This document shows positions 2,552 to 15,271 of a DNA stretch of 50,071 nucleotides, one piece after another. Every line of letters begins with the position of its first letter. Position 1 is the first letter of the stretch. A program made the position numbers and the translations under genes. The notes beneath the pieces are model-generated. The model was not told the DNA's origin. It saw nothing but the letters and a program-made list of their open reading frames with translations, and made no database searches. The DNA comes from Patescibacteria group bacterium. GTDB taxonomy: Bacteria; Patescibacteriota; Microgenomatia; Levybacterales; UBA12049. Location of the stretch: NCBI GenBank assembly GCA_035510535.1, contig DATKGY010000046.1, forward strand, positions 1 through 50,071, given 5' to 3'.

Positions 2552-2658
2552 CGAGCCTAGAATTATTATAACTGCAAGAGTAATAGAATCCTTCCAGAAC
2601 TTAAGCTATATCGGGGAATTAAGACAAAGATGGGAGGAGATAAAGAAATTGCAATCGA
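2552..2658 (+). repeat. Copy B of the 107-bp imperfect direct repeat
   Basis: Offset is exactly 2411 bp from copy A. Reads ...RIIITARVIESFQNLSYIGELRQRWEEIKKLQ... with stop at 2682-2684 and an upstream in-frame stop at 2484-2486. Confidence 0.85.
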
Positions 2659-2707
2659 GAACGATACTGGCTGGCTCAATTTAATTTAATAGTGACGTAG
2701 AGCGAGT

Positions 2708-3181
2708 TTATTTTTTTTGTTCTGGCGACAGCGGAAATTTCTTAAAAATCGAGTTACTAACCATATCCAGCAACAGCTTTACGCTATCTCTCATACTATC
2801 AAGATTAGGTAGCTCCTTGAATCCTGTTTGTGGATATTCAAACTGCTTCGTTTTATAGTACTGATTTGCGGTAAATGTTCGCACCATACTGTCTACGTCC
2901 ATTAGCACTTCATTGCTATGCAGCTCTTTGATAAGTTTCTCAAGATCGTGTCCAATATCCAACAGTTGTTTGCGCGTGTAACCTTTTTCTCTCAAATAGG
3001 CCTTCATTGCTAACTCTATAGCGTGACAAAGTAAATAATATTTTACTTCATATCTACTTATGGGTTTTGGGTGCTTTTCGTGGAGATCTTCAAAAGACTT
3101 GAAGTAATCCCATGCATACATAATAAGACCACGGGAGGTCAATCTTGTCTCTAATTCTTCCTCAAGTTTTTTCTTATCCAT
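2708..3181 (-). CDS. Helical protein, weakly HEPN-like (tentative)
   Basis: 157-aa ORF. CHAIELAMKAYLREKGY and IGHDLEKLIKEL resemble HEPN helices. However R..H in RKQLLDIGH is spaced by 7 residues, not the canonical 4-6. It lies 6 nt downstream of the preceding gene on the same strand. Confidence 0.4.
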   Translation of the reverse strand: MDKKKLEEELETRLTSRGLIMYAWDYFKSFEDLHEKHPKPISRYEVKYYLLCHAIELAMKAYLREKGYTRKQLLDIGHDLEKLIKELHSNEVLMDVDSMVRTFTANQYYKTKQFEYPQTGFKELPNLDSMRDSVKLLLDMVSNSIFKKFPLSPEQKK

Positions 3182-3187
3182 AGTTGG

Positions 3188-3694
3188 TTATTCCCCGAGT
3201 TCTCCTCTTGTTCTGATTGGTTCACCTGTACTGATTACTTTAAACTTCTCATCTTTTAACTGTTCAGCGGGTAGAAATGTTTGCCAGCCTAAATCATACA
3301 TGGTCTTCATATTCCAAATGTGATGCTTTTTCTTGGTTATCAGATCAAGCAGGAATATTGCACCAGGCGCTTTCTCACTCTCAATTAGCTTATATGTTTT
3401 ACCATGCTTGTCTGGTGCGTATTTTTCTCTAAATTCCTTTATTGTTCTCCTCCTGTAGAGTTCTTCTCGAAAATAAGAGGTTCCAAAATATGCCGTAATC
3501 AATGCAGCTATACCAATGGCTACTTTATTGAAGTTATCTGAAAGCGCAGCAAGTCGATTAAGAGGAACAAAAAAGAAATGAGCAAGGATAAAAAGTAAAG
3601 AGATAAATATCAGTACCGTTATATCGTTAAACCATCGTTTCATAATCCCAACCATTATAGCACCCTGAAATCGTACGGGGAAAAACTTACACAT
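3188..3694 (-). CDS. Two-TM membrane protein with a soluble C-terminal domain, unknown function
   Basis: 168-aa ORF with hydrophobic segments ITVLIFISLLFILAHFFFV and VAIGIAALITAYFGTSYF. It begins 11 nt after the vsr stop on the same strand. The true start may be an internal Met (MKRWFND). Confidence 0.55.
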   Translation of the reverse strand: MCKFFPVRFQGAIMVGIMKRWFNDITVLIFISLLFILAHFFFVPLNRLAALSDNFNKVAIGIAALITAYFGTSYFREELYRRRTIKEFREKYAPDKHGKTYKLIESEKAPGAIFLLDLITKKKHHIWNMKTMYDLGWQTFLPAEQLKDEKFKVISTGEPIRTRGELGE

Positions 3695-3705
3695 ACAACG
3701 TCAAC

Positions 3706-4110
3706 CTAATTTTCTATGATTACATTTCTAATTTTCTCAGCACACTCATTGGGATTTTTAATAATTTCCGCTTTCCAAAACCTCAACACTTTCCAACCGT
3801 TTTTCTTAAGAGTTTTATTTACAAGACTATCTCTTTCAATGTTGGTTTTTATCTTGTTTTTCCAAAAGATTTTATATCCCTCTCCTTCTTTTTTGAAATT
3901 TTTACCGTGCCAAAAATCTCCATCGCAAAAAATAGCAACTTTCTTAGATGGAAAAATTATGTCTGGTTTTCCAAATAATTTATTTTTAACCCTAAACCTT
4001 AAACCTTTTTTAAACAAAGCTTTACGTAAAATAAGCTCAATATTAGTATTCTTATTCCTTACTTTCCGCATTATTTCACTGCGTTTTTTTACCGAAAATA
4101 TGTCCGACAT
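3706..4110 (-). CDS. vsr: Very short patch repair (T:G mismatch) endonuclease
   Basis: 134 aa. MSDIFSVKKRSEIMRKVRNKNTNIELILRKAL..KGLRFR ... PDIIFPSKKVAIFCDGDFWHG ... GWKVLRFW is the characteristic Vsr layout. It is divergent from the adjacent C5 methylase. Confidence 0.85.
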   Translation of the reverse strand: MSDIFSVKKRSEIMRKVRNKNTNIELILRKALFKKGLRFRVKNKLFGKPDIIFPSKKVAIFCDGDFWHGKNFKKEGEGYKIFWKNKIKTNIERDSLVNKTLKKNGWKVLRFWKAEIIKNPNECAEKIRNVIIEN

Positions 4111-4149
4111 TGTAATTGTCTTTCTTACCGGCTATTATATATAAAGTGT

Positions 4150-5166
4150 ATGAAGAACCTCAAGGCTGTTGATTTATTTGCTGGCATTGGAGGAGTAAGA
4201 CTGGGCCTTGAAAAAGCAGGTTTTGAGGTTAGTTATTCAAACGATTGCGACAGATTTTGTAAAATAACATTTGAAAATTATTTTAAAGAACCTCTTGATA
4301 CAAGGAAAATAGAAGATGTCCCATTTGATGAAATCCCCGATGATATAGACCTTTTAGCGGCGGGGTTTCCGTGCCAGCCCTTCTCTCTAGCAGGCTTAAA
4401 AAAGGGTTTTGACGATCCAAGAGGTTCATTATTTCAAAAAGTGGCTGAGATAATTGACAATAAACAACCTAGGGCTTTTCTATTAGAGAATGTGAAGCAT
4501 TTAAAAAGGCATGACGGAGGAAAAACTTTAGAGCATATTTTAAGTGTGTTAAGAAAAGAATTAAAGTATTACGTACCAGACCCCATGGTATTAAACAGTA
4601 AGGATTTTGGAGTACCTCAAAATAGAGAAAGAATTTACATTGTAGGATTCAGAGAGAAAACAGATTTTGAATATCCGAAGGGAAACGTCGAACAGCCTAA
4701 GCTTGCAAGTATTCTTGAAGAGGGCATTGACGATGAATTCTATTTTTTATCTCAAAAATATCTGGACTGTCTTATTAGGCATAAAAAGAGGCATAAAAAG
4801 AGGGGGAATGGATTCGGCCTAGAAATTCTTGACCCAGAGGGAATATCAAATACCTTAGTCGTTGGGAATATGGGAAGAGAAAGAAACTTAATTAAGGATA
4901 TTTCTTCTAAAATAGCCTTTTCAAAGAATAATGCTGGGGTAAGAAAATTGACTATTCGTGAATGTACAAGGCTACAAGGCTTGCCCAAGGATTTTGAATT
5001 CCCTGTTTCTCGTACTCAAGCTTATAAGCAACTAGGGAATTCCGTATCCGTACCCGTAATTAAAGCTATCGGAAAACAAATTTTAAAAGCCTTAACAAAG
5101 GAGAAAAATATTAAAGTTGGAAGCGAAATAATGATGGATGTAGCTAGAATTCCCTTAGTCTCCTAA
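4150..5166 (+). CDS. dcm: DNA (cytosine-5)-methyltransferase
   Basis: C5-MTase motifs occur in order: I DLFAGIGG, IV GFPCQPFS, VI LLENV, VIII QNRERIYIVG, IX RKLTIRECTRLQGLP, X GNSVSVPV. Confidence 0.95.
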   Translation: MKNLKAVDLFAGIGGVRLGLEKAGFEVSYSNDCDRFCKITFENYFKEPLDTRKIEDVPFDEIPDDIDLLAAGFPCQPFSLAGLKKGFDDPRGSLFQKVAEIIDNKQPRAFLLENVKHLKRHDGGKTLEHILSVLRKELKYYVPDPMVLNSKDFGVPQNRERIYIVGFREKTDFEYPKGNVEQPKLASILEEGIDDEFYFLSQKYLDCLIRHKKRHKKRGNGFGLEILDPEGISNTLVVGNMGRERNLIKDISSKIAFSKNNAGVRKLTIRECTRLQGLPKDFEFPVSRTQAYKQLGNSVSVPVIKAIGKQILKALTKEKNIKVGSEIMMDVARIPLVS

Positions 5167-5910
5167 GTACGCCGCAATTTCTTTATCGAATGATTTGAAT
5201 ATCTCCTTTATTTGATCTTTAGACAGAGACGTAAACAACTTATAGCCTCCTATTGCATTCACTCTTCTCATTAACAACCTTACCTTGCCTTCTTTTTTAG
5301 CTGAGAACAGATCTGGATTTTCTAAAATATACTCAAGGATAGCGTGCGTAAATTCGGCATTTCTTCCTTGAACTCCCGCAATTATAGTTCTATAAAAATC
5401 CAACATCGAAAATAGTTGTTCAGTTAGTTCATATGGATTTTCGCGGTTCTTATCGTAAGTTAAATAGCAACCCCACCATAAAGAAGAGATGGCATTTCTA
5501 GCCAAGTCTGGTGCCCCAACATTCTTCACAAACCAATGCTCTAATATATACGAACTTTTATCAATATTGGGCTTGAGTTGTTCAATCGGCCATCTTGTTC
5601 TTGTGTATTTCCAAAATGTACCATGTGTTAAATAAGTCCACAAGCCTGGATCGGATGCTTTTATAAGAGGAAGGTCTTTATATATTTCAAAAATGATTTT
5701 TGCGTTTTCAAGATTATGTTTATTTTCTCCCTGAGGTAAAATCAACATAATTTCATCTGGAATAGTGAGGCGTGCGTCAATAAGGCAATTTTCATCTTCA
5801 ATAGGAAAATGATCTTTTTCATAGAGTTCAAGAATTTCAGGCTCTCCCTTTATTATTCTTTCCTCCAGTGACTTTATGTAGTTATTTTTAAATACTTTTT
5901 GAAATGCCAT
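5155..5910 (-). CDS. Unknown protein, last gene of the GHKL-ATPase operon
   Basis: The track ORF runs 5155-5967. I prefer the ATG at 5908-5910 (MAFQKVF...) because GGAGG lies 8 nt upstream and it begins 1 nt after the stop (5912-5914) of the preceding gene. That gives 251 aa with no catalytic motif I recognise. Its 3' end overlaps the dcm 3' end by 12 nt (convergent). Confidence 0.7.
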   Translation of the reverse strand: MAFQKVFKNNYIKSLEERIIKGEPEILELYEKDHFPIEDENCLIDARLTIPDEIMLILPQGENKHNLENAKIIFEIYKDLPLIKASDPGLWTYLTHGTFWKYTRTRWPIEQLKPNIDKSSYILEHWFVKNVGAPDLARNAISSLWWGCYLTYDKNRENPYELTEQLFSMLDFYRTIIAGVQGRNAEFTHAILEYILENPDLFSAKKEGKVRLLMRRVNAIGGYKLFTSLSKDQIKEIFKSFDKEIAAYLGD

Positions 5911-5911
5911 A

Positions 5912-6778
5912 TTATTCGCCTCCAGTTTCCGTTGAAAGACCCTCCACAGCGGAGAACATTCTTTCAAACGGAATTCCGAGCAACTTTTGTGCTATCTCAG
6001 GTATATTTCTTGAATCCCAAATTGCTTTAATTTCATTATCATTCACCCTTCTCGAATCCAAAACTCTGAACCATTTCCATTCTTTGTAATCGTCTTGTCT
6101 TTCTGACATCATCTCTGTTAGTGCGAATATCAGGCAAGGTAAAACTATAGAGCAATGATAAATTGCCGTAAAGTTTTCATTTTCCTCTTTATAATTATCA
6201 TAGTTTTGATAGTCCTTTTTAGATAGAGATATGAAGATAATGTTACCATTCAAATCGAATAGTGCTGGTCCATCTTCTCTTTCCTCGTCTTTTCTAATTT
6301 TTATTATGTTAAAAATTCTTCTTAAATCTTCCCACAGGAGCTCTGCGTTAAAACTTATACTACCTGCGAATGCAAGCACATCGCCTTCACTTAAATCGAA
6401 TCCAGCGTTTTCATAATCTTCATTTGCATCCTGATTCTTATAATCAGCAATTTTAGTATTGGCAGTAATATAGAAAGATACGACCACTTTATCTCTTAAC
6501 TTATTTTTTTCTATTCCTATTTGATGTTTCTGGTCGAAGAATATAAAAGATTTTCTATAGAAAGTTGAAGGACATTCAACCTCCATGTTAAAAACAGCTT
6601 CTTTTTTTGAAATAAGCTCTTCTAAAGTTTTATTTTTTAGCAAAAACTCGACAGATAATTTAGTATCTTTTTCATCCTGCTCAATTATAAATCCATCCTC
6701 TTTAACCAAAAATTCTCCGGCAACATCGTCTCCCCTTCCCAAAACTGGATGTGGTAATAATAAACTATTAATTTTCAT
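5912..6778 (-). CDS. Unknown protein, middle gene of the GHKL-ATPase operon
   Basis: 288-aa ORF whose start overlaps the upstream ATPase gene by 11 nt. It is acidic and Lys-rich. I could find no Walker, PD-(D/E)xK, HNH or other recognisable motif. Confidence 0.7.
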   Translation of the reverse strand: MKINSLLLPHPVLGRGDDVAGEFLVKEDGFIIEQDEKDTKLSVEFLLKNKTLEELISKKEAVFNMEVECPSTFYRKSFIFFDQKHQIGIEKNKLRDKVVVSFYITANTKIADYKNQDANEDYENAGFDLSEGDVLAFAGSISFNAELLWEDLRRIFNIIKIRKDEEREDGPALFDLNGNIIFISLSKKDYQNYDNYKEENENFTAIYHCSIVLPCLIFALTEMMSERQDDYKEWKWFRVLDSRRVNDNEIKAIWDSRNIPEIAQKLLGIPFERMFSAVEGLSTETGGE

Positions 6779-8612
6779 AAGCTCTTAGATTCAATGAATA
6801 TTTCCCTGGTATTTTAAAGAAAAGTTTTACTTTCATTTGTTTTGACTCAGGAATAACCAGATTTTTAATAAGGTTACCCTCAACTTGATATTTGTTTCCG
6901 TTTTCGGCTATAGCTTCTTTTAAATCAATAGTGTCAAAAGAATCTTCTGTTCCTACCCTCACTTCTACATTAAAAGAATTCCCAGCATCTCCACTAATAA
7001 AAACAATGTGCTCCGTATTGTTATCTTTTTTAACCGCATAAGATCTTTTGAAGCGTATATTCTTGTTGATTTTAATCAATTTTGTTCCTTCGTCTTCTGG
7101 ATGACCTGTCCCTGTCCCTTCTCCTTGTCCGCCTCCATGACCTCCACCCTCGCCCTCTCCTTCAGGCTCTCCCGGGACTACGGTAGGAATTTTAACTTGA
7201 ATATTAATAACTGGAGGCTTTCCGATAAGATTATCACCTCTTAGTAATGACCCTGTTTCCTCTCTAACTATTTGTCCTTCTATACTTTCGGGGCTTCCTT
7301 CGTCATTCATTTCATTGTCTTCCGCAGGGGAATAGAAATATTTATCCAAGTCTTTAATCGTAGATTCGATTGAATCTACCGAAGCGGTAATTTCGTTCAG
7401 TTTTGATTCTACAAACTCCTTCAATTCTTTTTCCGCTTCCGAATATATTTTTTTCTCTTCTGGGTCGCTTGTCATTGGAACATCTTTACTCCATCTGCTG
7501 TGAGTAGGATCTTCCATTTTACGTAAAACCTCATTCTCGTCAGGACAAACAAATACTCCTGCGAACCCCTTTCCCGAGTTGAGAGGTTTGTTTTGAATAA
7601 CCATTCCTGTATTGCGGAAATATTCGATTCTTCTTGGAAAATCTTTTTGTAATAAGATACGTAATTCAACTGGTCCAATGGTTTTTAAATGACCTGAAAT
7701 TACAGTGCCTTCCTTATAGGCTCTGTAAAAGGGAATAGGATTGTCTTTGTCAGCAGTCCTATCTTCCGAAAAATACTCAAAAATCTTAGCTTCAACATTA
7801 GAATCATCTATGCAGAGTTCTCCTATTTTAACTTCCAATAATCCTTTAAGGATTGCTAACCAAAAATATCTTAGAACAGATTCTACCATCTTTTTCTGCC
7901 ACTGATAATTCTCCTCAAACCCAATAATAAATATGCTTGTGCCTTTTTCATCTCTCTTAAAAACTTCTGGAATGTCTTCATCTTTCCTTATTGCGGGATA
8001 TGTGAAAAGACCTATGCCATGCTTCATTTGATCTTCTTGTAAATGACTTACCAGCCTGAATTTTCCTTGAAAAACAGGCTGATTATTTCCCCAAATACTC
8101 GAAACAAATATTGTTCTAAAGAGGGAGGGTCTAAAATAAGCTCCCTTTCCCAATCCGTATGTCCCTCCCATACCTCTGGCTTTGTTGGAAGAACCCGAAA
8201 TCCTCATTAACTTGTAATAAGCACCATTTCTGTCTTCCTCATCTCCATATAAACCTGTCGTGTTGTAATCACTTATTTTCATTACATTTATTGACTTATT
8301 ATCATTCACATATTCGTAGGCCTTCTTAAAGAAATCTTTGCCTTCGCTATTGTCTTCTTTTTCATGTCTCCAACAAGCTTCAAAAATATCCTTAAGTTTA
8401 TTCGAATCAGGGAGCGATTGAGGAGCCATCTTGAACATTTCAAACTCGGCTTTTGCCGGTCCTTCTGCCTCTGGGTCTTTTGCATCTACAATATTTTGAA
8501 TTGCTTCTCGCGTAAGGTTATAGAGAACGTCACCGGTAAAATTATAGATAAGGGGATCATGGAACCCCGTCTCCTCAGCAACGTTTAAAGGAGGAAAGCA
8601 ATAAGTATTCAT
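6768..8612 (-). CDS. GHKL (Bergerat-fold, MORC/MutL/Hsp90-like) ATPase-domain protein with a Gly/Glu linker and beta-rich C-terminal domain
   Basis: 614 aa. N-box ExxxNxxDA appears as REAIQNIVDA, a G1-like ISDYNTTGL, and G2 GxxGxG as GGTYGLGKGA. A low-complexity stretch GEPEGEGEGGGHGGGQGEGTGTG is followed by ~100 aa of alternating-pattern sequence. Confidence 0.7.
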   Translation of the reverse strand: MNTYCFPPLNVAEETGFHDPLIYNFTGDVLYNLTREAIQNIVDAKDPEAEGPAKAEFEMFKMAPQSLPDSNKLKDIFEACWRHEKEDNSEGKDFFKKAYEYVNDNKSINVMKISDYNTTGLYGDEEDRNGAYYKLMRISGSSNKARGMGGTYGLGKGAYFRPSLFRTIFVSSIWGNNQPVFQGKFRLVSHLQEDQMKHGIGLFTYPAIRKDEDIPEVFKRDEKGTSIFIIGFEENYQWQKKMVESVLRYFWLAILKGLLEVKIGELCIDDSNVEAKIFEYFSEDRTADKDNPIPFYRAYKEGTVISGHLKTIGPVELRILLQKDFPRRIEYFRNTGMVIQNKPLNSGKGFAGVFVCPDENEVLRKMEDPTHSRWSKDVPMTSDPEEKKIYSEAEKELKEFVESKLNEITASVDSIESTIKDLDKYFYSPAEDNEMNDEGSPESIEGQIVREETGSLLRGDNLIGKPPVINIQVKIPTVVPGEPEGEGEGGGHGGGQGEGTGTGHPEDEGTKLIKINKNIRFKRSYAVKKDNNTEHIVFISGDAGNSFNVEVRVGTEDSFDTIDLKEAIAENGNKYQVEGNLIKNLVIPESKQMKVKLFFKIPGKYSLNLRAYEN

Positions 8613-8640
8613 ATCAATTTCAATATTTAGTTAGTTACCC

Positions 8641-8874
8641 TTAAAACTTAAATTGTTTTTTTCTTGACTTAAATCTTGCCTTAACAGTTCTGACTTGATC
8701 CTCTATCGCCTTAAATATACTATCAACTTCCTGGTCAGAATAGTCATAAGAACTTTTGTTTGAAAGATTTCCTAAAATCCTAATTTTCTCGAGGACTTCG
8801 TTTGTTCTCTTGAGTCCCAGTCTTTTAAAGCGATCGTTTCTTGTTTCCATTAAAAACCATTCTAGCACTTGCAT
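8641..8874 (-). CDS. Small basic protein, possible first gene of the GHKL operon
   Basis: 77-aa ORF (or 69 aa from the second Met, METRND...) ending 28 nt upstream of the ATPase start on the same strand. No recognisable domain. Confidence 0.45.
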   Translation of the reverse strand: MQVLEWFLMETRNDRFKRLGLKRTNEVLEKIRILGNLSNKSSYDYSDQEVDSIFKAIEDQVRTVKARFKSRKKQFKF

Positions 8875-8946
8875 ATAAGGATTTCAAGTATTTATATAAC
8901 TATCAATTTTACTTATATAAGGAAATGGGGTATATAATGTAATGAT

Positions 8947-9360
8947 ATGGCTAATGGCAAAAAAGGGAGACCTTTAACTTCTGCTTCTAAAAAAGAGGAG
9001 ATGGTCTCAAAAATAAAACCTTATTTACAGTCTGGTTTAAGCATCAGAAAAAGCGTAATTGAAGCTGGAATTAGTCGTGCAACCTTTTATCGCATAATGG
9101 GTGCCGACAAGAATTTTCGGAGTGAAATTACTCATTTTAGAAATTATTTATCTATACTTGTCAGTAATGCATTGGTTAAAGAGTTATTTGCAATTTCAGA
9201 GAAGCAATCCCAAGGTCAACCTTTAACAAAAGACGATATAAGATTTCTGTTTAGGCTTGTGCTTAAAACTCGTTTCGGAAAAGATGAATGGGGCAGAAAA
9301 AGAAATGCGGATTATGACCCGGAACTGGAATTACACAAACTAAGGCAGACATTTAACTAA
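8947..9360 (+). CDS. Helix-turn-helix DNA-binding protein
   Basis: 137 aa. LSIRKSVIEAGISRATFYRIM is a classic HTH segment, and the N-terminus is basic. Confidence 0.55.
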   Translation: MANGKKGRPLTSASKKEEMVSKIKPYLQSGLSIRKSVIEAGISRATFYRIMGADKNFRSEITHFRNYLSILVSNALVKELFAISEKQSQGQPLTKDDIRFLFRLVLKTRFGKDEWGRKRNADYDPELELHKLRQTFN

Positions 9361-9607
9361 ATAAATCGGACAATTTAACGCCTAGAACTCTTGCTATCTT
9401 GTCCAAGGTTGAGATTGAAGGATTCCGCACGCCTTGCTCAATAAAACCAACATACGTTTCAGATACTCCTATCATCTCTGCCATTCGTGCTTGAGTAAGG
9501 TTTTTTCTCTCCCTAAAACTTTTAATTCTTTGTCCCACATCTTTTGGAATTCTGGAATATTTTCTTTGCATAGATATATTATCAAAGGGACTATTTAAAA
9601 TCTTCAC
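9353..9607 (-). CDS. XRE/Cro-CI family transcriptional regulator
   Basis: 84 aa. RIKSFRERKNLTQARMAEMIGVSETYVGFIEQGVRNPSISTLDKIARVLGVKLSDLF is the canonical XRE HTH. Confidence 0.9.
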   Translation of the reverse strand: MKILNSPFDNISMQRKYSRIPKDVGQRIKSFRERKNLTQARMAEMIGVSETYVGFIEQGVRNPSISTLDKIARVLGVKLSDLFS

Positions 9608-9666
9608 AAACTATTTGTTTGACTTTACCCTGTAATTACGCTTATAATTTAGTCAAACTATTTGTT
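9607..9666 (+). promoter_or_regulatory. Near-consensus sigma70-type promoter flanked by two copies of a 13-bp putative operator
   Basis: TTGACT (9619-9624), an 18-nt spacer, then TATAAT (9643-9648). CAAACTATTTGTT occurs at 9607-9619 and again at 9654-9666. GTTTGAC (9617-9623) is the inverted partner of GTCAAAC (9652-9658). The region lies between the XRE gene and the divergent 9671 gene. Confidence 0.65.
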
Positions 9667-9670
9667 AGAT

Positions 9671-10270
9671 ATGAAAACTTGCAAAGCCTGCATGAAGAAA
9701 ATTGACGAAAAGGCAACAAAATGCCCCTTTTGCCGTGAAGACCAAAGAGGCTTCTTTCTGAAGCATAAGATAATAAGCGGCATTTTACTTCTTTTCCTAG
9801 TAATTATTTCGGGCATATTCTGGGTTAGTATTGCCTCTGTATTGATGCCTAAACCTAATCCAACATTAGCTCCTGAAAACAAACAATGGATTACTGACGC
9901 AGGAAAGCGGTATTACACTGCACAAAAAAATTATTACGATACGCTTGGTAAGGCTATGCATGCCTCCCCTGATGAGATGAATATAACCAAAAATATTGCT
10001 TCTGCAGAGGCGACAATGAAGCTTTGCTTATACAAACTAGATAAGCAGCATTGTGAGAATGTGATAGATGGAACTCTTTGGATTGGCGAACCCAAATTTT
10101 GGGTAGAGATGACTATTGGAGCTTATACAAGCTCCCGAAACACAACCATTGTAAGGGGAGTTACGCATGAACAATGGGTTTTTGGTAACCCGTTATACGG
10201 TGCAACATATGCCTATTTTGATAACGATGTTTTATCCTCCTACCAAGAACAAAACCCAACTGGCAATTAG
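9671..10270 (+). CDS. Zinc-ribbon / single-TM / extracytoplasmic-domain protein
   Basis: The track ORF starts at a TTG at 9662, and the ATG at 9671 (MKTCKAC...) is more likely. It has CKAC...CPFC, then the TM IISGILLLFLVIISGIFWVSIASVL and a ~130-aa outside domain. Confidence 0.6.
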   Translation: MKTCKACMKKIDEKATKCPFCREDQRGFFLKHKIISGILLLFLVIISGIFWVSIASVLMPKPNPTLAPENKQWITDAGKRYYTAQKNYYDTLGKAMHASPDEMNITKNIASAEATMKLCLYKLDKQHCENVIDGTLWIGEPKFWVEMTIGAYTSSRNTTIVRGVTHEQWVFGNPLYGATYAYFDNDVLSSYQEQNPTGN

Positions 10271-10367
10271 CTTTGAACTTAGCTTCAGTATTTAAACCCC
10301 CTTCTCGCCTATTCTACGGCGTTTTACGCTATTTAATTTTCCATAAAGGTATGTATAATTACGGCAG

Positions 10368-11225
10368 ATGAAAATTGATATTCAAACGCCTGACAAAAAA
10401 CACGCAACAGATATCGCGATGCTCGTAGATAAGCCTGAATTTCTTCTGGAAATAGAAAAGTTAAGACAAAAATGGAGTATTAAAGAACTTTACAGACCTT
10501 CTGCTTTCCATTCATTTTTAGAATTCCATATTATGACTAATAAGGATACCGTATCAATTGATAAAGAGGTGAAAAAAAGATTATCGGAATTCAATAATGA
10601 CATTGATTTGGTTCTCAAAAAATTCAATAGAGGAAGAAACTTTAAGCGAGTGGTTGAATATGCTTTAGCAACGGGTATCGTTCCCAATGGCATTTATCGT
10701 AGTTGTTATTTTGATCTAGTTAAAATTGGCGAATCTAATGATTTAGAACAGCCAGAAAGATACGAATATGTCATAGTTTTGTCTCCCAGAACAGAGCTAA
10801 AAGAAGTAAGAAATGCTTATAAGGAATTCAAGGAGCATATTAAGGGTAAGATTGACTTCGAATCTATTGCTAATCTAGACATTGAAATTCCTACGGATAA
10901 AGAGTTAATTGAACAGTATCATAGGGGAAATATTTATAAGTCTGCTGATATTGATAAATTTAAAACACTAAAAGAACTGAGTAGAACAAGAGAATGGTAT
11001 TGGATTAAATATGAAACTTATTTTAGTCACGAAACAAAAAAACCTATGTCTTACCCAGAGGTTCTTAAGAAATGGCAAGAAAATTGTCCGATAAATAAGC
11101 AAAATCAGAAGAAAAAAAGATTAGAAGACAAAACGGAATGTTCTTGCCCCTATTGTTTGTTTTATGACATCAATATTATTGAACAGGCTATCAATTCTTA
11201 CAATAAACTTCTTGTAGAATCCTGA
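10368..11225 (+). CDS. Hypothetical protein
   Basis: 285-aa ORF with a Lys/Glu-rich composition and a C-terminal CSCPYC. No recognisable domain. Confidence 0.5.
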   Translation: MKIDIQTPDKKHATDIAMLVDKPEFLLEIEKLRQKWSIKELYRPSAFHSFLEFHIMTNKDTVSIDKEVKKRLSEFNNDIDLVLKKFNRGRNFKRVVEYALATGIVPNGIYRSCYFDLVKIGESNDLEQPERYEYVIVLSPRTELKEVRNAYKEFKEHIKGKIDFESIANLDIEIPTDKELIEQYHRGNIYKSADIDKFKTLKELSRTREWYWIKYETYFSHETKKPMSYPEVLKKWQENCPINKQNQKKKRLEDKTECSCPYCLFYDINIIEQAINSYNKLLVES

Positions 11226-11284
11226 ACTTCTAAATTTTTGTAACTTCATTTTTTTCTTCCTCAAGGCAATTTAGAATAAACCCT

Positions 11285-11446
11285 ATGAAGGTAAAGATTG
11301 AAAACGATTCTGAATTGCAATGTCAAAAACAGATTGAACTTGCCGCAGAGACTTTGGCTCATATTCTAATCCAACAGGCTATGAGTAAGAGAAATCTTGT
11401 GGGCAGTCAACAGATTGAAAACAAATATGGAAAACCAAATAAATAA
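11285..11446 (+). CDS. Small hypothetical ORF (53 aa), below the track threshold
   Basis: ATG at 11285 and TAA at 11444-11446 (MKVKIENDSELQCQKQIELAAETLAHILIQQAMSKRNLVGSQQIENKYGKPNK). It overlaps the start of the next gene. This is coding-like only. Confidence 0.25.
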   Translation: MKVKIENDSELQCQKQIELAAETLAHILIQQAMSKRNLVGSQQIENKYGKPNK

Positions 11447-11678
11447 TTTTTCTACATCGGATATAAAAATTGCCTCCTATCTTCTAAGCAAGGGCATCTC
11501 GCTTATTGGAGTTGAAAGACCACAGGTTAAAAAAGTTATTTTTGTTTTCGAAAACTCCAATCGAATAACACATTTAATTCAAGATTATTTGTCAGATAAA
11601 GCCAGTGTAAATCCTAGGGTTCTGTTTGAAAGTTTTAGCAACCTAAAAAGTGTGATTTTCAAGGAAATAGGGATTTAA
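11427..11678 (+). CDS. Small hypothetical protein
   Basis: The track ORF is 11397-11678. The internal ATG at 11427 (MENQINNF...) is more plausible than the upstream start. Confidence 0.45.
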   Translation: MENQINNFSTSDIKIASYLLSKGISLIGVERPQVKKVIFVFENSNRITHLIQDYLSDKASVNPRVLFESFSNLKSVIFKEIGI

Positions 11679-11704
11679 AGACAAGTAAAAGATTGATAAT
11701 AAAT

Positions 11705-11851
11705 ATGAATCAAGAATCCATTTATAAGATTAACAAGTTTAAGATTGAGCAAATTCTGGCAGACAAAACAATTCCTCCTGGTGCCAAATTAGTTCTGCTT
11801 AATCTTCTTCGCAGAGCAGGAGGAATACCCAAAGGAGGAGGTAATCGATAA
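11705..11851 (+). CDS. Small protein (48 aa), winged-helix-like, translationally coupled to the next gene
   Basis: MNQESIYKINKFKIEQILADKTIPPGAKLVLLNLLRRAGGIPKGGGNR. Its TAA overlaps the next ATG as TAATG at 11849-11853. Confidence 0.35.
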   Translation: MNQESIYKINKFKIEQILADKTIPPGAKLVLLNLLRRAGGIPKGGGNR

Positions 11852-12591
11852 TGGGAAATAAGTATTTTGTAAAGTTTGTTGAGAGTAGCCCTGAATTCTA
11901 TTCACTTATTAATCAACGTCCAACAGCTTTTGTCTTACTTGCACTTATTGTTGATAGAGCAAGAAAGGTCCCCCTTACCATAAAAGATGGAATTGAAGTT
12001 GGGGAAGCACTAATTGGAGACTATAAAGAATATGGGGCGACAGAACAAACGTACAAAACTGATAAAAATTATTTAAAAAAGTTCGGAATTGCAACGTTCA
12101 AATCAACGAGCAAAGGAACTATTGCAAAGCTTGTTAATTCAAGCATATTTGATATTTCAAGAAATCTATCAACGGACAAATCAACAGGAGAACAACAAGC
12201 AACCAACGAGCAACCAACGACTAAACAAGAGGTAAGAAGTAAGAAAGAAGAAGCTAGCCAAGCCAAGCCAATGGAAAAAAACGCTTTTTTCCATGATAGA
12301 CACACAGAAACTCTCTTAAATGAGACTAATCAATCACTTAATGAAGATGAAGATGCACATCCTGCTTACAAGGATAACAATGCTAGCGATGATGAGAAAA
12401 GAGGGCTTTATTGGGATATACATGCTCCAAGATTAGCAGCGGAGATAGATATACAAGAGGAGTCGTGGCAATACTTAAATGCTAAAAAGGATTGGATGAA
12501 GAAAGTAAAGGTACCCTCTCATGGTTCAATAAAAGCATTTTTAAACAATGCTAATGATTGGGATGAGACAGATAAGGGTAACAGATACTGA
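11851..12591 (+). CDS. Hypothetical protein, N-terminal winged-helix-like region and acidic low-complexity C-terminal half
   Basis: 246-aa ORF. The FVLLALIVDRARK segment echoes the upstream small ORF. No catalytic motif seen. Confidence 0.5.
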   Translation: MGNKYFVKFVESSPEFYSLINQRPTAFVLLALIVDRARKVPLTIKDGIEVGEALIGDYKEYGATEQTYKTDKNYLKKFGIATFKSTSKGTIAKLVNSSIFDISRNLSTDKSTGEQQATNEQPTTKQEVRSKKEEASQAKPMEKNAFFHDRHTETLLNETNQSLNEDEDAHPAYKDNNASDDEKRGLYWDIHAPRLAAEIDIQEESWQYLNAKKDWMKKVKVPSHGSIKAFLNNANDWDETDKGNRY

Positions 12592-12669
12592 TTATCAGCT
12601 TGTGTAATAGCAGCACACAAAGTCAAGGCGTAATTAGTCTATGTATAAAGGGGAATAGTAAAAACTAAT

Positions 12670-13185
12670 ATGAATCAAAAAACGAGTAATTTACAGAAAA
12701 GAATTTTAACAACTATATATTCACAAGGTGAATATGAAGATTTAGTTTCGGTTGTGGAGTTAAATCCTGAAAAAGTTAGCGTTGAGTATCAACTTGAGAA
12801 GCAAAAGTTAGTAGATGAAAGAGGTGGCGTATTTGTTAGAGAAGATAGAGATACTGAAGGGCTTTTAACTAAAAATTATAAAGTAAAGACCTACAGGCTC
12901 AAAAGGAGTAAATTGGCCTGTTTATTGTTTGATTGGCAGGAATTCAATTTATATCTTGAATCTTTAAATGAGGCACATTTGGGAATGAAACCTGAAGACT
13001 ATTATGCTCGCGAAGTTGCACTTACTAACAGCCTAAAAAGTCTAAAGGCAAAAGGATATGTAGAGTTTCTTGATTATTACGAAATGAAGCTAGGTTTGTT
13101 TGGAAAAAAACATGCAAAAATTATATGGTTGACCACAGAAGGTATTAATAAAGCAGAAAGCATCCTAACTATTAAATTGAATTAG
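12670..13185 (+). CDS. Hypothetical protein
   Basis: 171-aa ORF. LQKRILTTIYSQGE and LKSLKAKGYVEF are reminiscent of wHTH regulators, but the resemblance is weak. Confidence 0.45.
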   Translation: MNQKTSNLQKRILTTIYSQGEYEDLVSVVELNPEKVSVEYQLEKQKLVDERGGVFVREDRDTEGLLTKNYKVKTYRLKRSKLACLLFDWQEFNLYLESLNEAHLGMKPEDYYAREVALTNSLKSLKAKGYVEFLDYYEMKLGLFGKKHAKIIWLTTEGINKAESILTIKLN

Positions 13186-13263
13186 TGGTTTTTAGATTTA
13201 ATAGTTAGAAAACAATTATGGTTATAAGAAAATACTTGAAATATTTTCAGAAGGGAAAAAATT

Positions 13264-13617
13264 ATGAAACAATTTACAATAAAAGTAACAGTACCCACTA
13301 AAGGAGATGCTTGGAAAATAAGCATAGGGAGAGGACGACCAAGAAAGAAGAAAAATGCCGTCGCAGTCTTCCGTCATGCGGAACGCTTTTTAACGCAAAA
13401 GTTTTTGACAAATTCAGCTTCAGAAGTCGAGGAAGAAATTAAAGTTTTAGTGGACTCTAGTATGGTAGACCATCTCAAGCCTATGAGTCAAACAGATTAT
13501 GGAATTTGTGCGGGGAAAAATGAAGCACTTTATTGTTTAGCTTCACACTTAGAAAATTTTCTCCCAATTCGTTATCTAAAAGCAAAGTATAAGTTGTATG
13601 ACAAAATAATGCGTTGA
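13264..13617 (+). CDS. Small protein with an AT-hook-like motif, immediately upstream of the recombinase
   Basis: 117 aa containing ISIGRGRPRKKKN (RGRP core flanked by basic residues). Confidence 0.5.
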   Translation: MKQFTIKVTVPTKGDAWKISIGRGRPRKKKNAVAVFRHAERFLTQKFLTNSASEVEEEIKVLVDSSMVDHLKPMSQTDYGICAGKNEALYCLASHLENFLPIRYLKAKYKLYDKIMR

Positions 13618-13694
13618 GGATATGATAAAGTCGCCCTTTATGCGTGAATTACATATAATTATTATGCTATAGGATTAAAGATTAAGATTGAAAT

Positions 13695-15200
13695 ATGAAT
13701 CAAGCATACACATACATAAGAGTTAGCACGGAAGAACAAAAAAATCATGGCTATAGCCCTGATAATCAAATTCGTCAATGTAAAGACTATGCTCGGATGC
13801 ACGGATACCACACAAGAAGAATGTTTGACGATAGTGGTAGAAGTGGTAGGTCGGCAGAAAAAAGACCTGCACTTCAAGAGTTGCTCAGAGCAGTTAACGA
13901 GCATCCAGTTGATGCAATCATAATCTATAAAATTGATAGGTTCGCGAGAAATGTTGGGGATTTCGACAGGATGTATAAAGATTTTAAGGCAAAGGGAATT
14001 AAGTTGCTTTCCGTAAACGAAGGAGATTTGATGGAAGGCAATAGTCTTATCCCTAATATTTTTGCTACCGTGGCTCAATGGGAGTCTGAAGTTAACTCCT
14101 CGCGAACAAAAGATGCTTTGCAACAAAAGTTTGAAGAAGGATGGCAGCCATACTCGCGTTATCCAGGTTACAGAAGTGTTGGGAAGAAAGATGAAAAGAA
14201 AACCTGTGAACCGGACCCTTATATTGCTCCAATTGTTAAAGAGTTATTTGAGCTTTACGCAACGGGAAATTACAGTATTATTGAATTGCAGGACTGGTTG
14301 GCGGAAAAGAATATCCTTTCCAGAAATGGCACAACGCTTGGTCATTCCGTTATTGACACAATTTTAAACAACCCTTTTTATTACGGACTTTGTCGCTGGC
14401 ACGGAGTAAGCAAGATGGGAAAACACAAACCGATTATTTCAAAGGAACTTTATGATACCTGCCAATACACCCTGTCAAAGCATCGCAGTTTTCTTTTACG
14501 AAGACGTATTCACGATTTTCTTCTCAGAGGTTTTTTAATCTGTGCCGAGTGCGGACAAAGATATACTGCGGAATGGCACAAAGATGCAGATAAATTGAAA
14601 AATAGAGATGGAAAAATAGCATACTACCATTGCCAAAAACGAGACAGAAACGGATGTCCTGCTCCGTATGTGCAGGTGGACGTAATGGAACAATTAGTTG
14701 AGGAAACATTTAAGACGATGGAATTTAGCGAAGAATTTACAACTGCTGTAGTTAATAAAACAAAAGAGATACTAAAAGAAGCCAGAAGAACTTCATCGTC
14801 TAGTCAACAAGGGATACTTAATCAGAAAACAGCATTAGAAACAAAAAGAAACAAACTTGAAGACAGTTTGATGGAAGGAATAGTTGACAGGGAAACCTAC
14901 AAGAGAATCCACGATAAACTACAAGAACAAATAATAAAGTTGGACAACGAAATGACAGAAACGGATAGCAAGCAGAAGATTGATATCGATTTAATTGAGG
15001 AAGTATTAGCCTTTAGCAGAAACATTCACCAAACATACATCGATGCCCCAACATACCTGAAAAGACACTATCTGAGATTCTTTTTTGAGTCTTTTGTTAT
15101 AAGAAATAAGAAGATATATAAAGTCGTGCCCACTCCTATATTCAAAATATTGGAAAATAGGCACGAAATTATAATAAGGGTGGCAGGGCTCCGCGGCTAG
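13695..15200 (+). CDS. Large serine recombinase (integrase)
   Basis: 501 aa. The resolvase catalytic domain is present (YTYIRVSTEEQ, GRSAEKRPALQELL, IIIYKIDRFARN), followed by a recombinase domain, a zinc ribbon (CAECGQ...YYHCQKRDRNGC) and a coiled-coil. The last 12 nt including the stop overlap the tRNA-Asn 3' end. Confidence 0.92.
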   Translation: MNQAYTYIRVSTEEQKNHGYSPDNQIRQCKDYARMHGYHTRRMFDDSGRSGRSAEKRPALQELLRAVNEHPVDAIIIYKIDRFARNVGDFDRMYKDFKAKGIKLLSVNEGDLMEGNSLIPNIFATVAQWESEVNSSRTKDALQQKFEEGWQPYSRYPGYRSVGKKDEKKTCEPDPYIAPIVKELFELYATGNYSIIELQDWLAEKNILSRNGTTLGHSVIDTILNNPFYYGLCRWHGVSKMGKHKPIISKELYDTCQYTLSKHRSFLLRRRIHDFLLRGFLICAECGQRYTAEWHKDADKLKNRDGKIAYYHCQKRDRNGCPAPYVQVDVMEQLVEETFKTMEFSEEFTTAVVNKTKEILKEARRTSSSSQQGILNQKTALETKRNKLEDSLMEGIVDRETYKRIHDKLQEQIIKLDNEMTETDSKQKIDIDLIEEVLAFSRNIHQTYIDAPTYLKRHYLRFFFESFVIRNKKIYKVVPTPIFKILENRHEIIIRVAGLRG

Positions 15201-15260
15201 GACTCGAACCTAGAACCTTGAAATTAACAGTTTCCTGCTCTACCATTGAGCTACCGCGGA
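15189..15260 (-). tRNA. tRNA-Asn (anticodon GTT)
   Basis: Folded by hand. Acceptor stem TCCGCGG/CCGCGGA, D-arm GCTC-AATGGTA-GAGC, anticodon arm GGAAA-CTGTTAA-TTTCA, T-arm CTAGG-TTCGAGT-CCTAG, discriminator G. CCA is not encoded. Confidence 0.9.
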
Positions 15261-15271
15261 ATGTGTATTTG

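Follow-up and report, generated by a model that had tools for sequence, protein, structure and literature searches.

Here we describe a four-gene cassette, S77-A-B-C, which by its profile matches is a member of the catalogued phage-defence candidate PDC-M33 and which is found in many bacteria next to a gene for a C5 cytosine DNA methyltransferase (Dcm). The linkage of a PDC-M33-type cassette to C5 methylation is the new element. The chances seem to us about even that the cassette belongs to a defence system keyed to DNA methylation, as its generic, ATP-driven effector or sensor module. The features of the locus, in the window (the whole stretch of 50,071 nucleotides that was analysed), are as follows:

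3706-4110, minus strand: Vsr very-short-patch repair endonuclease (TIGR00632, 2.3e-36; Pfam Vsr, 4e-26)
4150-5166, plus strand: C5 cytosine DNA methyltransferase (Pfam DNA_methylase, 9.6e-89; TIGR00675, 1.3e-84)
5155-5910, minus strand: protein C gene, 251 aa from its ATG (Pfam DUF6339, 1.2e-49)
5912-6778, minus strand: protein B gene, 288 aa (PADLOC PDC-M33B, 1.5e-61)
6768-8612, minus strand: protein A gene, 614 aa, second gene of the cassette
6771-7073, minus strand: protein A residues 514-614, tethered C-terminal beta-sandwich domain (AlphaFold2 model)
7074-7382, minus strand: protein A residues 411-513, low-complexity Gly/Glu/Pro linker, predicted disordered (pLDDT)
7383-7907, minus strand: protein A residues 236-410, transducer (S5-like) domain with a long end helix at 384-410 (Foldseek)
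7908-8612, minus strand: protein A residues 1-235, GHKL (Bergerat-fold) ATP-binding domain (motifs, AlphaFold2, Foldseek)
8641-8874, minus strand: S77 gene, 77 aa, first gene of the cassette
8875-8946, no strand: divergent intergenic region between S77 and a 137-aa HTH-like gene, where the promoter of the cassette probably lies

The original prediction described four co-oriented minus-strand genes of 77, 614, 288 and 251 aa, joined by a 28-nt gap, an 11-nt overlap (of the protein B start with the protein A end) and a 1-nt gap, with a GGAGG 8 nt upstream of the protein C ATG (5910) and a 12-nt overlap between the protein C gene and the 3′ end of the C5 methylase gene. Recomputed, all of these coordinates and distances agree. 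The ORF lister prolongs the protein C frame to a TTG at 5967, as against the ATG at 5910. The public gene call for protein A is 513 aa long (P0001), and such a product would be devoid of motif I; the 614-aa reading frame is supported by homologues of 615-630 aa, whose alignments with it run from end to end. The locus stands on a low-GC island, adjoining a large serine recombinase and tRNA-Asn.

The proposal that the 614/288/251 trio is a conserved neighbourhood is confirmed by the A-B-C order in 79 of 80 related loci, a sample that represents the best-scoring 80 of at least 309, in which the loci are not phylogenetically independent and the genes were called by a simple ORF finder. This conservation, together with the database relatives of each protein (157 for A, 21 for B and 51 for C), indicates that A, B and C are not chance ORFs. 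The loci span at least eight phyla (Patescibacteria, Bacteroidota, Proteobacteria, Firmicutes, Chloroflexota, Deinococcota, Omnitrophota and Elusimicrobiota), many of the hosts being genome-reduced Patescibacteria, and the cassette is found beside a C5 methylase and Vsr in hundreds of bacterial species. Furthermore, B and C are invariably encoded together with A and co-evolve with it, the similarity correlations being 0.89 for A-B (Spearman) and 0.72 for A-C. The protein B family alone comprises 2572 clusters at 50% identity.

These proteins had been considered unassignable, a description that has to be abandoned: the three PADLOC models PDC-M33A, PDC-M33B and PDC-M33C match A (2.5e-111, residues 1-613), B (1.5e-61) and C (2.5e-46) over their full length and in the same gene order, and C corresponds to Pfam DUF6339. 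S77 is absent from the three listed families. PDC-M33 is one of 145 phage-defence candidates (Payne et al., 2024, bioRxiv 10.1101/2024.01.29.577857), and its entry consists of three families, a count of 98, which we read as RefSeq instances, and the wording “Assign as candidate PDC-M33”. The text and supplementary files of that work, as far as searched here, give no domain annotation for PDC-M33, and mention neither a link to a C5 methylase or Vsr nor the GHKL fold of A.

The methylase of the window, convergent with C, aligns over its full length with M.HhaI (6e-50) and also matches the DISARM DrmMII model (PADLOC, 6.8e-94); Vsr, whose TIGR00632 score is above the family cut-off, is divergent from it. 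Of the 43 loci with full flanks, 32 (74%) have a C5 methylase homologue no more than 3.5 kb from the cassette, and 21 (49%) have a Vsr homologue near it. Dcm density reaches 17.3 per 100 kb at up to 2.5 kb from the cassette versus 0.4 per 100 kb at 2.5-8 kb, a 40-fold local enrichment. Among the neighbours of the 80 loci, Dcm (56) and Vsr (36) are the only families that recur widely, the next largest counting 6, and Dcm is the sole methylase family to recur. Gene orders of operon-like appearance, for instance Dcm>Vsr>S77>A>B>C, are frequent, and in three loci (L024, L065, L078) the cassette is embedded between Dcm and Vsr. The expected co-occurrence with a C5 methylase is therefore strong, but it is not constant: in 11 of the 43 full-flank loci no methylase gene lies within 3.5 kb, and some of these loci are located among housekeeping genes. 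Moreover, Vsr is missing from 11 of the 32 Dcm-linked full-flank loci, and 11 of the 43 have neither gene.

The cassette is independent of the identity of the methylase. The A-Dcm similarity correlation is 0.24 and that of A-Vsr is a weak 0.36; near-identical A proteins (0.83) are paired with unrelated methylases (0.07), and the cassette-linked methylases form at least 17 clusters. In several loci, the linked methylase has a conventional restriction enzyme (REase) of HpaII, Sau3AI or NgoFVII type. Unrelated methylases on closely related cassettes, and ordinary restriction enzymes at several loci, thus indicate that the cassette is not a sequence-matched restriction enzyme.

Protein A is predicted to be a GHKL plus transducer ATPase with intact active-site motifs. 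The GHKL assignment, initially made from Bergerat motifs, is borne out by the fold (AlphaFold2 model, Foldseek), and the motifs quoted are present and constitute the most conserved columns of a 36-sequence alignment. In it, ATP motifs I-IV are invariant, with the conserved residues R35, E36, Q39, N40 and D43; D115, N117, T118 and G120; G149, G150, G153, G155 and K156; G224 and T225. The pLDDT of this domain is mostly above 90, except in the ATP-lid (about 130-160, with the minimum at 147-154). The best PDB match is TRAP1/Hsp90 (Foldseek, E=8.6e-9), followed by Topo VI-B (1.9e-7), GyrB (7.6e-7) and the MutL N40 fragment (1bkn, 2e-3); the alignments, of about 420 columns, correspond to the GHKL and middle domains of Hsp90, GyrB and Topo VI-B, at 10-13% sequence identity to these neighbours. 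None of the sequence-profile searches detects the GHKL domain, Pfam HATPase_c_3 and HATPase_c being silent, and neither Pfam nor NCBIfam gives a MutL family match. The transducer domain carries an invariant R333 and an invariant E367-x3-H371-x2-W374. The Gly/Glu linker and the beta-rich C-terminal domain that had been proposed both appear in the AlphaFold2 model: the former (412-512, pLDDT below 50) differs in length and composition between homologues, while the latter has eight strands (pLDDT about 80-90), a conserved sequence that includes a GT(D/E)D motif and ends in YE, and weak Ig/CBM-like matches only in the PDB (Foldseek).

Protein B is modelled (pLDDT 81) as an N-terminal beta-sandwich region (22-185) followed by a C-terminal helical bundle (187-283), with no enzyme fold among its Foldseek matches, which are just FnIII/cytokine-receptor-like at E>=1e-3. 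Protein C has the invariant residues A85, W91, Y102, W145 and W146, as well as conserved polar residues (D66, E75, D87, H96, R106, H125, R138, D153 and D171). Elsewhere it forms one protein with Topo-I-type zinc ribbons (L002) or, in L072, with a PAPS-reductase domain, which corresponds to a stand-alone SspD-like PAPS-reductase gene that adjoins C in L074; in two other loci (L042, L056) an HNH_2 nuclease gene directly follows C. As anticipated, B and C contain no known nuclease or HTH domain by Pfam, NCBIfam or PADLOC. Nor do the same searches and Foldseek identify a nuclease in A or B, and neither protein presents a toxin-like domain (HEPN, nuclease, TIR or pore-former).

Both mobile elements and defence islands carry the cassette. 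It is found on a conjugative L. lactis plasmid near AbiGI/II and an AlwI restriction-modification (R-M) system, on a temperate phage, where the integrase is close and a C5 methylase follows a few genes further downstream, and, in L. salivarius, inside a type I R-M locus. Among Lactobacillales variants, the context is of the N6-adenine or type I kind.

Several known systems offer points of comparison. As early as 2008, GHKL+S5 ATPases were described as associated, in R-M operons, with genes for Dcm and Vsr (Iyer, Abhiman and Aravind, 2008, PMC2292703). As the consulted portions of that account have it, the paraMORC and prokaryotic MORC proteins share with A the GHKL and S5/transducer domains with intact ATP motifs, their neighbourhoods contain DNA cytosine methylases and Vsr-family and HNH nucleases as does that of the cassette, and the stated hallmark of paraMORC2, ExxxH, is invariant in the C-terminal part of the transducer domain of A. 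Nevertheless, the Pfam models HATPase_c_3 and HATPase_c leave A undetected, an hhalign comparison of A with a MORC-like neighbour protein is not significant, and the cassette has no SFII helicase, typical of most MORC/paraMORC operons; partners such as B and C are not mentioned in those portions (PMC2292703). Among the best structural neighbours of A (Hsp90/TRAP1, Topo VI-B and the GyrB 43K fragment, by Foldseek), Topo VI-B has a transducer that also ends in a long helix, but a Toprim/Spo11-like partner is missing from the cassette, since B is a predicted beta-sandwich plus helical bundle, and the cassette has no chaperone context. BREX and DISARM, methylation-based defence systems with generic effectors, resemble it: self is marked by a methylase, and the large accessory proteins, which contain ATPases, have no sequence specificity of their own; BREX, too, has no obvious nuclease. 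However, their ATPase is a P-loop enzyme or helicase instead of GHKL, the cassette is far smaller, and PADLOC finds none of their core proteins in the window. Finally, AbiR of Lactococcus lactis pKR223 is a three-gene defence module beside the LlaKR2I R-M system (Twomey 2000; Yang 2006; both as covered by the review PMC13064643). It needs the LlaKR2I methylase, is toxic without it and impedes phage DNA replication; its proteins (sigma70-like, ParB-like, and a nuclease plus SNF2 helicase) are unrelated to those of the cassette, for which AbiR would be a functional precedent only.

If the cassette is indeed a module keyed to methylation, the neighbouring methylase would place 5-methylcytosine on host DNA and Vsr would repair the resulting T:G mismatches. 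Protein A would undergo ATP-driven dimerisation like MutL, GyrB, Hsp90 or MORC, acting as a clamp or matchmaker on DNA, with B as its adaptor and C as the subunit proximal to DNA or to the modification. The target of the complex would be DNA without the host mark, the specificity coming from the methylase or the mark itself, with no recognition subunit in the cassette. The complex could then bring in a nuclease that the cassette does not encode, whether Vsr, a neighbouring HNH or REase or an enzyme of the host, or it could block replication without cutting, as proposed for BREX. This effector step is pure conjecture, because no component has a recognizable nuclease and B has no enzyme-like fold. 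Obligatory protection by a methylase would make the 11 of 43 loci without one nearby difficult to explain, unless it is encoded at a distance or the variants work differently; and since several loci have an entire R-M system of conventional type, the methylase may be part of that system and not of the cassette.

These last two observations would be expected if the cassette were a stand-alone or “guard” module of abortive-infection type lodged in R-M loci, like PrrC/RloC, set off by phage or when the adjoining R-M or methylation system is interfered with, and making no use of the methyl mark to tell self from non-self: where an HpaII-, Sau3AI- or NgoFVII-type system is complete, no second restriction activity is needed. 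What defined PDC-M33 itself was its occurrence within BREX, DISARM or type I R-M loci, as the L. salivarius cassette illustrates, and paraMORC-HEPN fusions in R-M neighbourhoods have been proposed as PrrC/RloC analogues by Aravind's group. Yet the partner in the 80 loci is overwhelmingly a C5 methylase and not one of the commoner N6-adenine R-M types, Dcm accompanies 21 of the 23 full-flank loci with S77, and A and B have no toxin-like domain, so that we hold this reading to be unlikely, though worth keeping in view.

In Escherichia coli, MutL, a GHKL plus transducer ATPase, stimulates Vsr, and very-short-patch repair thus offers a case in which such an ATPase is functionally coupled to Vsr and Dcm methylation. 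A-B-C could similarly act as a matchmaker of MutL type, stimulating or directing Vsr or otherwise managing 5-methylcytosine damage, and be carried with mobile dcm-vsr modules for hosts without a compatible MutL. The architecture of A, that of the MutL N-terminal fragment, would suit this role, as would the many genome-reduced Patescibacteria among the hosts, the three loci in which Dcm and Vsr flank the cassette, and the linkage to C5 methylases of any identity, which a 5mC-damage function predicts. Such a helper of Vsr, already among the possibilities of the original prediction, fits worse on other grounds and appears improbable: a third of the Dcm-linked loci have no Vsr, A-Vsr similarity is weakly correlated, and A is closer to Hsp90, Topo VI-B and GyrB than to MutL, whose C-terminal dimerisation/endonuclease domain it does not have. 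The defence islands, the plasmids with Abi genes, the temperate phage and the N6-adenine or type I contexts of Lactobacillales variants also speak against repair.

Least probable is a multi-subunit restriction endonuclease cognate to the adjacent methylase, with a cryptic nuclease and recognition function in C or the beta-sandwich domains: the tight, often operonic methylase linkage, the many conserved polar residues of C and the HNH_2 genes after C in L042 and L056 are in its favour, but the earlier notion of a restriction module protected by Dcm fails in this simple form, since near-identical A proteins, with co-varying B and C, accompany unrelated methylases, a swapping that no sequence-specific REase could tolerate, conventional REases exist in the same loci, about a quarter of the full-flank loci have no methylase, and A and B carry no nuclease signature.

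S77 is a genuine fourth component of the cassette: a homologue is located directly upstream of A, usually 2-11 nt apart, in 48 of the 80 loci. It is a small, basic protein with invariant F16, R23, N39 and Y43, inside the motif LGNCxNRxNYxYTExDV, and has no match in Pfam, PADLOC, PHROGs or the PDB. Its start is probably Met9 (ATG 8850, 69 aa) rather than the first ATG, since homologues of 70-77 aa align from there and a promoter-like site overlaps the first ATG. This site, TTGAAA-17-TAGAAT with a TG extension (8887-8859, minus strand), comes from a pattern scan whose total matches were no more numerous than in shuffled sequence. In related loci, the gap before S77 is always 47-154 nt.

The cassette consists of four minus-strand genes, hereafter S77, A, B and C, lying beside genes for a C5 cytosine methylase (Dcm) and a very-short-patch repair endonuclease (Vsr), with the cassette reading frames taken from the ORF list:

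8641-8874, minus strand, S77, 77 aa
6768-8612, minus strand, A, 614 aa
5912-6778, minus strand, B, 288 aa
5155-5910, minus strand, C, 251 aa
4150-5166, plus strand, C5 methylase (Dcm), convergent with C
3706-4110, divergent from the methylase gene, vsr

S77 and A are separated by 28 nt, A and B overlap by 11 nt, and B and C are 1 nt apart; a GGAGG sequence precedes the ATG of C by 8 nt, and the C gene shares a 12-nt overlap with the 3′ end of the methylase gene. The gene sizes, spacings and signals described in the original prediction were all reproduced from the ORF list and the sequence. The four frames are not chance ORFs, since the protein database holds relatives of A (157), B (21) and C (51). 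The public gene call for A is a 5′-truncated protein of 513 aa that would be devoid of ATP motif I, and the 614-aa frame is the correct one because homologues of 615-630 aa align with it end to end. S77 probably starts at Met9 (ATG at 8850), where the alignment of its homologues begins; a promoter-like -35/-10 pair at 8887-8859, as a pattern match only, overlaps the first ATG of this gene.

In PADLOC, the three larger proteins match the families M33A (E=2.5e-111, residues 1-613 of 614), M33B (1.5e-61, 1-283 of 288) and M33C (2.5e-46, 38-240 of 251). Judged by these profiles, the window locus is a member of the phage-defence candidate PDC-M33, with three co-oriented genes in the order A>B>C on the minus strand. 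The PADLOC run that had been proposed thus returned this system in this gene order, and the term “unassignable” can no longer be applied to proteins that match PDC-M33A, B and C over their full length, C being a DUF6339 protein. According to the accessible parts of the source publication, PDC-M33 belongs to a set of 145 phage defence candidates proposed from their embedding inside BREX, DISARM and type I R-M loci, it is described together with its fellow candidates as untested by the authors, and its entry in the supplementary table consists of three protein families and a count of 98 (Payne et al., 2024, 10.1101/2024.01.29.577857). RefSeq labels A and B “hypothetical protein”, family members being otherwise DUF6339, and a literature search on PDC-M33 and DUF6339 found no papers. 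The feature is real, conserved and widespread, and belongs to an already catalogued candidate family, so that it is not categorically new. As far as the accessible parts of the sources searched extend, they contain neither a confirmation of the GHKL fold, nor a beta-sandwich B, nor S77 as a methylase-correlated fourth component; the quantified linkage to C5 methylases and Vsr and the interchangeability of the methylase are likewise absent from them.

Of 185,579 genomes, one per species, at least 309 encode a relative of A by a profile scan; the same profile found none in the IMG/VR viral contigs. Neighbourhoods were compared in the best 80 of these at least 309 loci, a top-scoring subset that is not phylogenetically independent, with genes called by a simple ORF finder; for plasmids, the PLSDB gene tables are incomplete. 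They comprise about 20 Patescibacteria, 38 Bacteroidota/Chlorobiota/Ignavibacteria, 5 Proteobacteria, 6 Firmicutes, 3 Chloroflexota, 2 Omnitrophota, 1 Elusimicrobiota, 1 Deinococcus and 4 unclassified loci. The cassette ranges over at least eight phyla, and is also carried by a temperate phage and by plasmids of lactic acid bacteria from dairy and gut. B and C, sought with HMMs, are co-oriented with A in the A-B-C order in 79/80 loci, which answers the question of synteny attached to the original prediction and bears out its recognition of the cassette as a real feature; in 48/80, S77 precedes A at a distance of 2-11 nt. Pairwise similarities within the cassette co-vary (Spearman 0.89 for A-B and 0.72 for A-C). 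B and C are obligatory partners of A.

The assignment of A to the GHKL ATPases, already made from its motifs, is sustained by two lines of evidence. Taking as signature ExxxNxxD for motif I, a DxGxG-like motif II, a GxxGxG lid for motif III and GT for motif IV, the Bergerat residues E36/N40/D43, D115/G120, G150/G153/G155-K156 and G224-T225 are invariant in an alignment of 36 sequences. In turn, Foldseek matched the AlphaFold2 model (pLDDT 78.6) to TRAP1/Hsp90 (E=8.6e-9), Topo VI-B (1.9e-7), GyrB 43K (7.6e-7) and MutL N40 (2e-3), each with probability 1.00 and over alignments of about 420 columns that cover the GHKL and the transducer/S5 (middle) domains. With both motifs and predicted fold in agreement, A is to be placed in the GHKL superfamily; the domain escaped sequence profiles alone (Pfam, profile searches of PDB sequences and a Pfam scan of 36 homologues, the latter giving no recurrent family). 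The subgroup that joins MutL, GyrB, Hsp90, Topo VI-B and MORC is defined by a post-GHKL domain that gives the ATP site a conserved basic residue, and A presents a second alpha/beta domain after GHKL, with an R333, invariant in the 36 sequences, whose equivalence to the catalytic Lys/Arg is putative. The transducer domain also holds an invariant E367-x3-H371-x2-W374. In the model, a long helix (384-410) is followed by a disordered Gly/Glu/Pro linker of about 100 residues and then by a beta-sandwich on this tether (514-614).

The association of GHKL+S5 ATPases with cytosine methylases and with Vsr-family and HNH nucleases in R-M operons was described by Iyer, Abhiman and Aravind, 2008 (PMC2292703). 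A resembles their paraMORC2 in the motif by which that family is described, E367-x3-H371 standing at the end of the transducer domain (36/36). HATPase_c_3, a criterion for the MORC family, matched neither A nor any of 36 homologues, the GhXhhpXXRhl motif of the MORC S5 domain is absent on inspection of the A consensus around the TGMVVQxK segment, and hhalign of the A profile with a HATPase_c_3 MORC-like protein from one related locus (L032) aligned motif I alone (E=0.15). A MutL protein is defined by an N-terminal GHKL+S5 region, a C-terminal dimerisation (often endonuclease) domain and a family signature; A differs in having no Pfam or NCBIfam MutL match and in ending with a disordered linker and a beta-sandwich, and MutL N40 was the 26th of its Foldseek matches. 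Among ten proteins of the locus, PADLOC found no BREX or DISARM core component (BrxC, PglZ, PglX; DrmA, DrmB, DrmC), and only the window methylase scores on DrmMII, with a higher score on the generic model for type II MTases. Judged by the defining components of those systems, the cassette is not MutL, BREX or DISARM. Lactococcal AbiR, three genes beside the LlaKR2I R-M system that are toxic unless the methylase of that system is present (PMC13064643), was also considered and rejected as an identity: its proteins are sigma70-like, ParB-like and a nuclease + SNF2, unrelated to those of the cassette, and it is a functional precedent only.

The model of B (pLDDT 81) comprises a beta-sandwich region and a helical bundle, which rules out a Spo11/Toprim protein by analogy with Topo VI; Foldseek returned no enzyme fold for it, at most weak FnIII-like matches (best E=9.7e-4, TM 0.24), few charged residues are conserved in its alignment, and a Pfam scan of 59 homologues gave no recurrent family. 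The B family amounts to 2572 clusters at 50% identity. C corresponds to Pfam DUF6339 (1.2e-49), and its alignment is rich in Trp, with invariant A85, W91, Y102, W145 and W146 and several conserved polar residues. Other genomes show it in fusions, with Topo-I-type zinc ribbons in L002 and with a PAPS-reductase domain in L072, and in L074 a separate SspD-like PAPS-reductase gene comes after it; these fusions and neighbours therefore place C next to DNA and DNA modification. A HEPN identity of C through an R-x6-H motif was ruled out, as the window copy has Gly for Arg and the residues between are hydrophobic, and histone H4 matches of its profile among PDB sequences (E~0.5) were disregarded. S77 is small and basic, with an LGNCxNRxNYxYTExDV motif and no relatives among known families in Pfam, NCBIfam, PHROGs or PDB sequences. 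HMMER profiles of all four alignments gave nothing significant against PDB sequences, and NCBIfam and PHROGs had no match for any of the four. In agreement with the missing effector of the original prediction, Pfam, PADLOC, NCBIfam and Foldseek revealed no nuclease fold in either A or B, nor did Pfam, PADLOC and NCBIfam, as sequence evidence only, reveal a nuclease in C.

Clustering of 464 neighbouring ORFs yielded only two widely recurrent families, with the C5 methylase in 56 loci and Vsr in 36; no other family exceeds 6 loci. Up to 2.5 kb from the cassette, methylase genes have a density of 17.3 per 100 kb, vs 0.4 at 2.5-8 kb in the same loci, a 40-fold local enrichment. In the 43 loci with at least 3.5 kb on each side (full-flank loci), and with detection by single-sequence phmmer at E<=1e-3, a C5 methylase is present in 32 (74%) and Vsr in 21 (49%). 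The suspected co-occurrence with a C5 methylase is thus upheld as a strong tendency and not as a rule, since 11 of the 43 have no methylase nearby, some of these lying among housekeeping genes. Among the full-flank loci, a methylase accompanies 21/23 cassettes with S77 vs 11/20 without it (Fisher p=0.012, uncorrected for phylogeny). Typically, Dcm and Vsr stand before the cassette, as Dcm>Vsr>S77>A>B>C, Vsr>Dcm>S77>A>B>C or <Dcm<Vsr S77>A>B>C, or they come after A>B>C, and in three loci the cassette stands between Dcm and Vsr. The window arrangement (S77 A B C, convergent Dcm, Vsr) recurs in L006 and, up to the contig end, as S77-A-B-C-<Dcm in L001, the methylases of both clustering with that of the window.

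Partner methylases fall into at least 17 clusters, similarity of A correlates with that of Dcm at 0.24, and A pairs at 0.83 normalised similarity carry Dcm at 0.07; the closest relatives of the window cassette, in Roizmanbacteria (A 61-63% identical), have different methylases in different positions. Specificity is not co-inherited with the methylase, and the proposal of a restriction module cognate to the adjacent Dcm fails in its simple form. In many loci a conventional restriction enzyme also stands beside the methylase: RE_HpaII in 4 loci and in L081, an NgoFVII-type enzyme in 2, a Sau3AI-family enzyme on a Priestia plasmid, and HNH_2 in 6 loci, directly after C in two. The methylase partner is interchangeable, and the cassette is independent of its identity.

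The reading that we favour, with about even confidence, is that of a generic ATP-driven defence or effector module tied to DNA modification, usually 5-methylcytosine. The GHKL motor of A is intact by its motifs and predicted fold, and the cassette has a mobile and defence-island context. The L. salivarius cassette, which has no S77, lies inside a type I R-M locus; in the L. lactis conjugative plasmid pS127, another S77-less cassette sits between an AlwI-type R-M system and AbiGI/II; and in a temperate phage the cassette is close to the integrase, a C5 methylase being encoded a few genes further downstream. AbiR offers a functional precedent for such a module. A would dimerise on ATP and act on DNA as a clamp or matchmaker, B would serve as adaptor and C as the DNA- or modification-proximal subunit; sequence specificity would come from the methylase or its mark and not from the cassette, and the outcome could be either a recruited nuclease encoded elsewhere or a BREX-like non-cleaving block. 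Rather unlikely is a PrrC-like guard, or a stand-alone Abi module, merely lodging in R-M loci: such a module would fit the solitary loci and the cassettes inside type I R-M systems, but the preference for C5 methylases is strong. The idea of a MutL-like protein that assists Vsr or deals with 5mC damage, favoured by the link with C5 methylases only and by the MutL-Vsr precedent, appears improbable, given that Vsr is missing from a third of the Dcm-linked loci, that A is without the MutL C-terminal domain and that the context is defence-related. A cognate sequence-specific restriction enzyme is very improbable, being contradicted by methylase swapping, which together with the co-resident restriction enzymes and the methylase-less loci argues that the cassette is not simply the enzyme of the adjacent methylase.

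MORC ATPases dimerise around DNA on ATP. In a bolder version, to which we assign a low probability, the cassette would be a nuclease-free clamp keyed to 5-methylcytosine: A, dimerising around DNA on ATP, would with B, C and S77 load or persist on DNA devoid of cytosine methylation, whatever the sequence context, and block the replication or expression of this unmethylated DNA. If true, this would account for the fact that the partner can be any C5 methylase, and would provide a prokaryotic counterpart, possibly an evolutionary antecedent, of the eukaryotic link between MORC and DNA methylation silencing. The family couples a GHKL motor to cytosine methylation and has neither a recognisable nuclease nor its own sequence specificity; it is relevant to the long-standing idea of a descent of eukaryotic MORC ATPases from R-M-associated GHKL proteins. 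Its mechanism would reveal a new way of reading methyl marks, a BREX-like non-cleaving defence or a mobile repair helper, and cultured hosts (Lactococcus lactis, Ligilactobacillus salivarius, Priestia) make it directly testable.

Other neighbours recur in small groups of loci. Three Bacteroidota loci (L024, L028, L032) encode a second, MORC-like GHKL protein of 700-987 aa upstream of Dcm (711 aa in L032, with HATPase_c_3 and HATPase_c domains), so that a single C5 methylase is accompanied there by two different GHKL ATPases. In Clostridia, the position of the methylase immediately upstream of the cassette is taken by a large protein with no Pfam or PADLOC match, which precedes S77 in L067 and L070 (914 and 1021 aa) and, as a 324-aa relative, directly precedes A in L069, where S77 is absent. 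This protein may be a partner or an unrecognised enzyme of modification. In three Patescibacteria loci (L012, L013, L014) a DUF6119 protein of 590 aa immediately follows C, and in three Bacteroidales loci (L056, L061, L063) a pair of proteins of 194 and ~625 aa lies downstream of the cassette; both may be further add-on modules.

The window cassette itself lies in a low-GC stretch (~2600-17000, GC 0.32-0.36 vs 0.37-0.47 to its right and 0.39-0.41 in the first 2 kb) that looks like an integrated mobile element and includes:

13695-15200, plus strand, large serine recombinase (Resolvase+Recombinase+Zn_ribbon_recom)
15186-15261, minus strand, tRNA-Asn, abutting the recombinase 3′ end

An att-type repeat of the tRNA-Asn 3′ end was searched for at the opposite end of the island and, none being found, this candidate was rejected. 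A direct repeat of 111 nt (137-247 and 2548-2658, 84% identity, no Rfam match) brackets a PP2C-phosphatase gene (363-1724) and a gene for a 218-aa protein (1790-2446), its second copy being at the left edge of the island. After vsr, on the minus strand (2708-3694) and with gaps of 11 and 6 nt, follow genes for a 168-aa protein with a hydrophobic N-terminus, possibly a membrane protein, that could not be assigned confidently to a family, and for a 157-aa protein whose match to HEPN is borderline (E=1.1e-4, 22.7 bits vs a cut-off of 22); they may form a separate small toxin-like pair, and neither has homologues in the 80 related loci. On the other flank, divergent from S77, a plus-strand gene (8947-9360) encodes a protein of 137 aa that weakly matches an HTH domain (Pfam HTH_7, 9e-4) and a terminase small subunit (phrog_1482, 1.7e-4). 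It is followed on the minus strand (9353-9607) by the gene for an XRE-family regulator of 84 aa, which PADLOC matches to “controller protein” models of R-M systems (4e-16), and XRE genes are present in 14 of the related loci.
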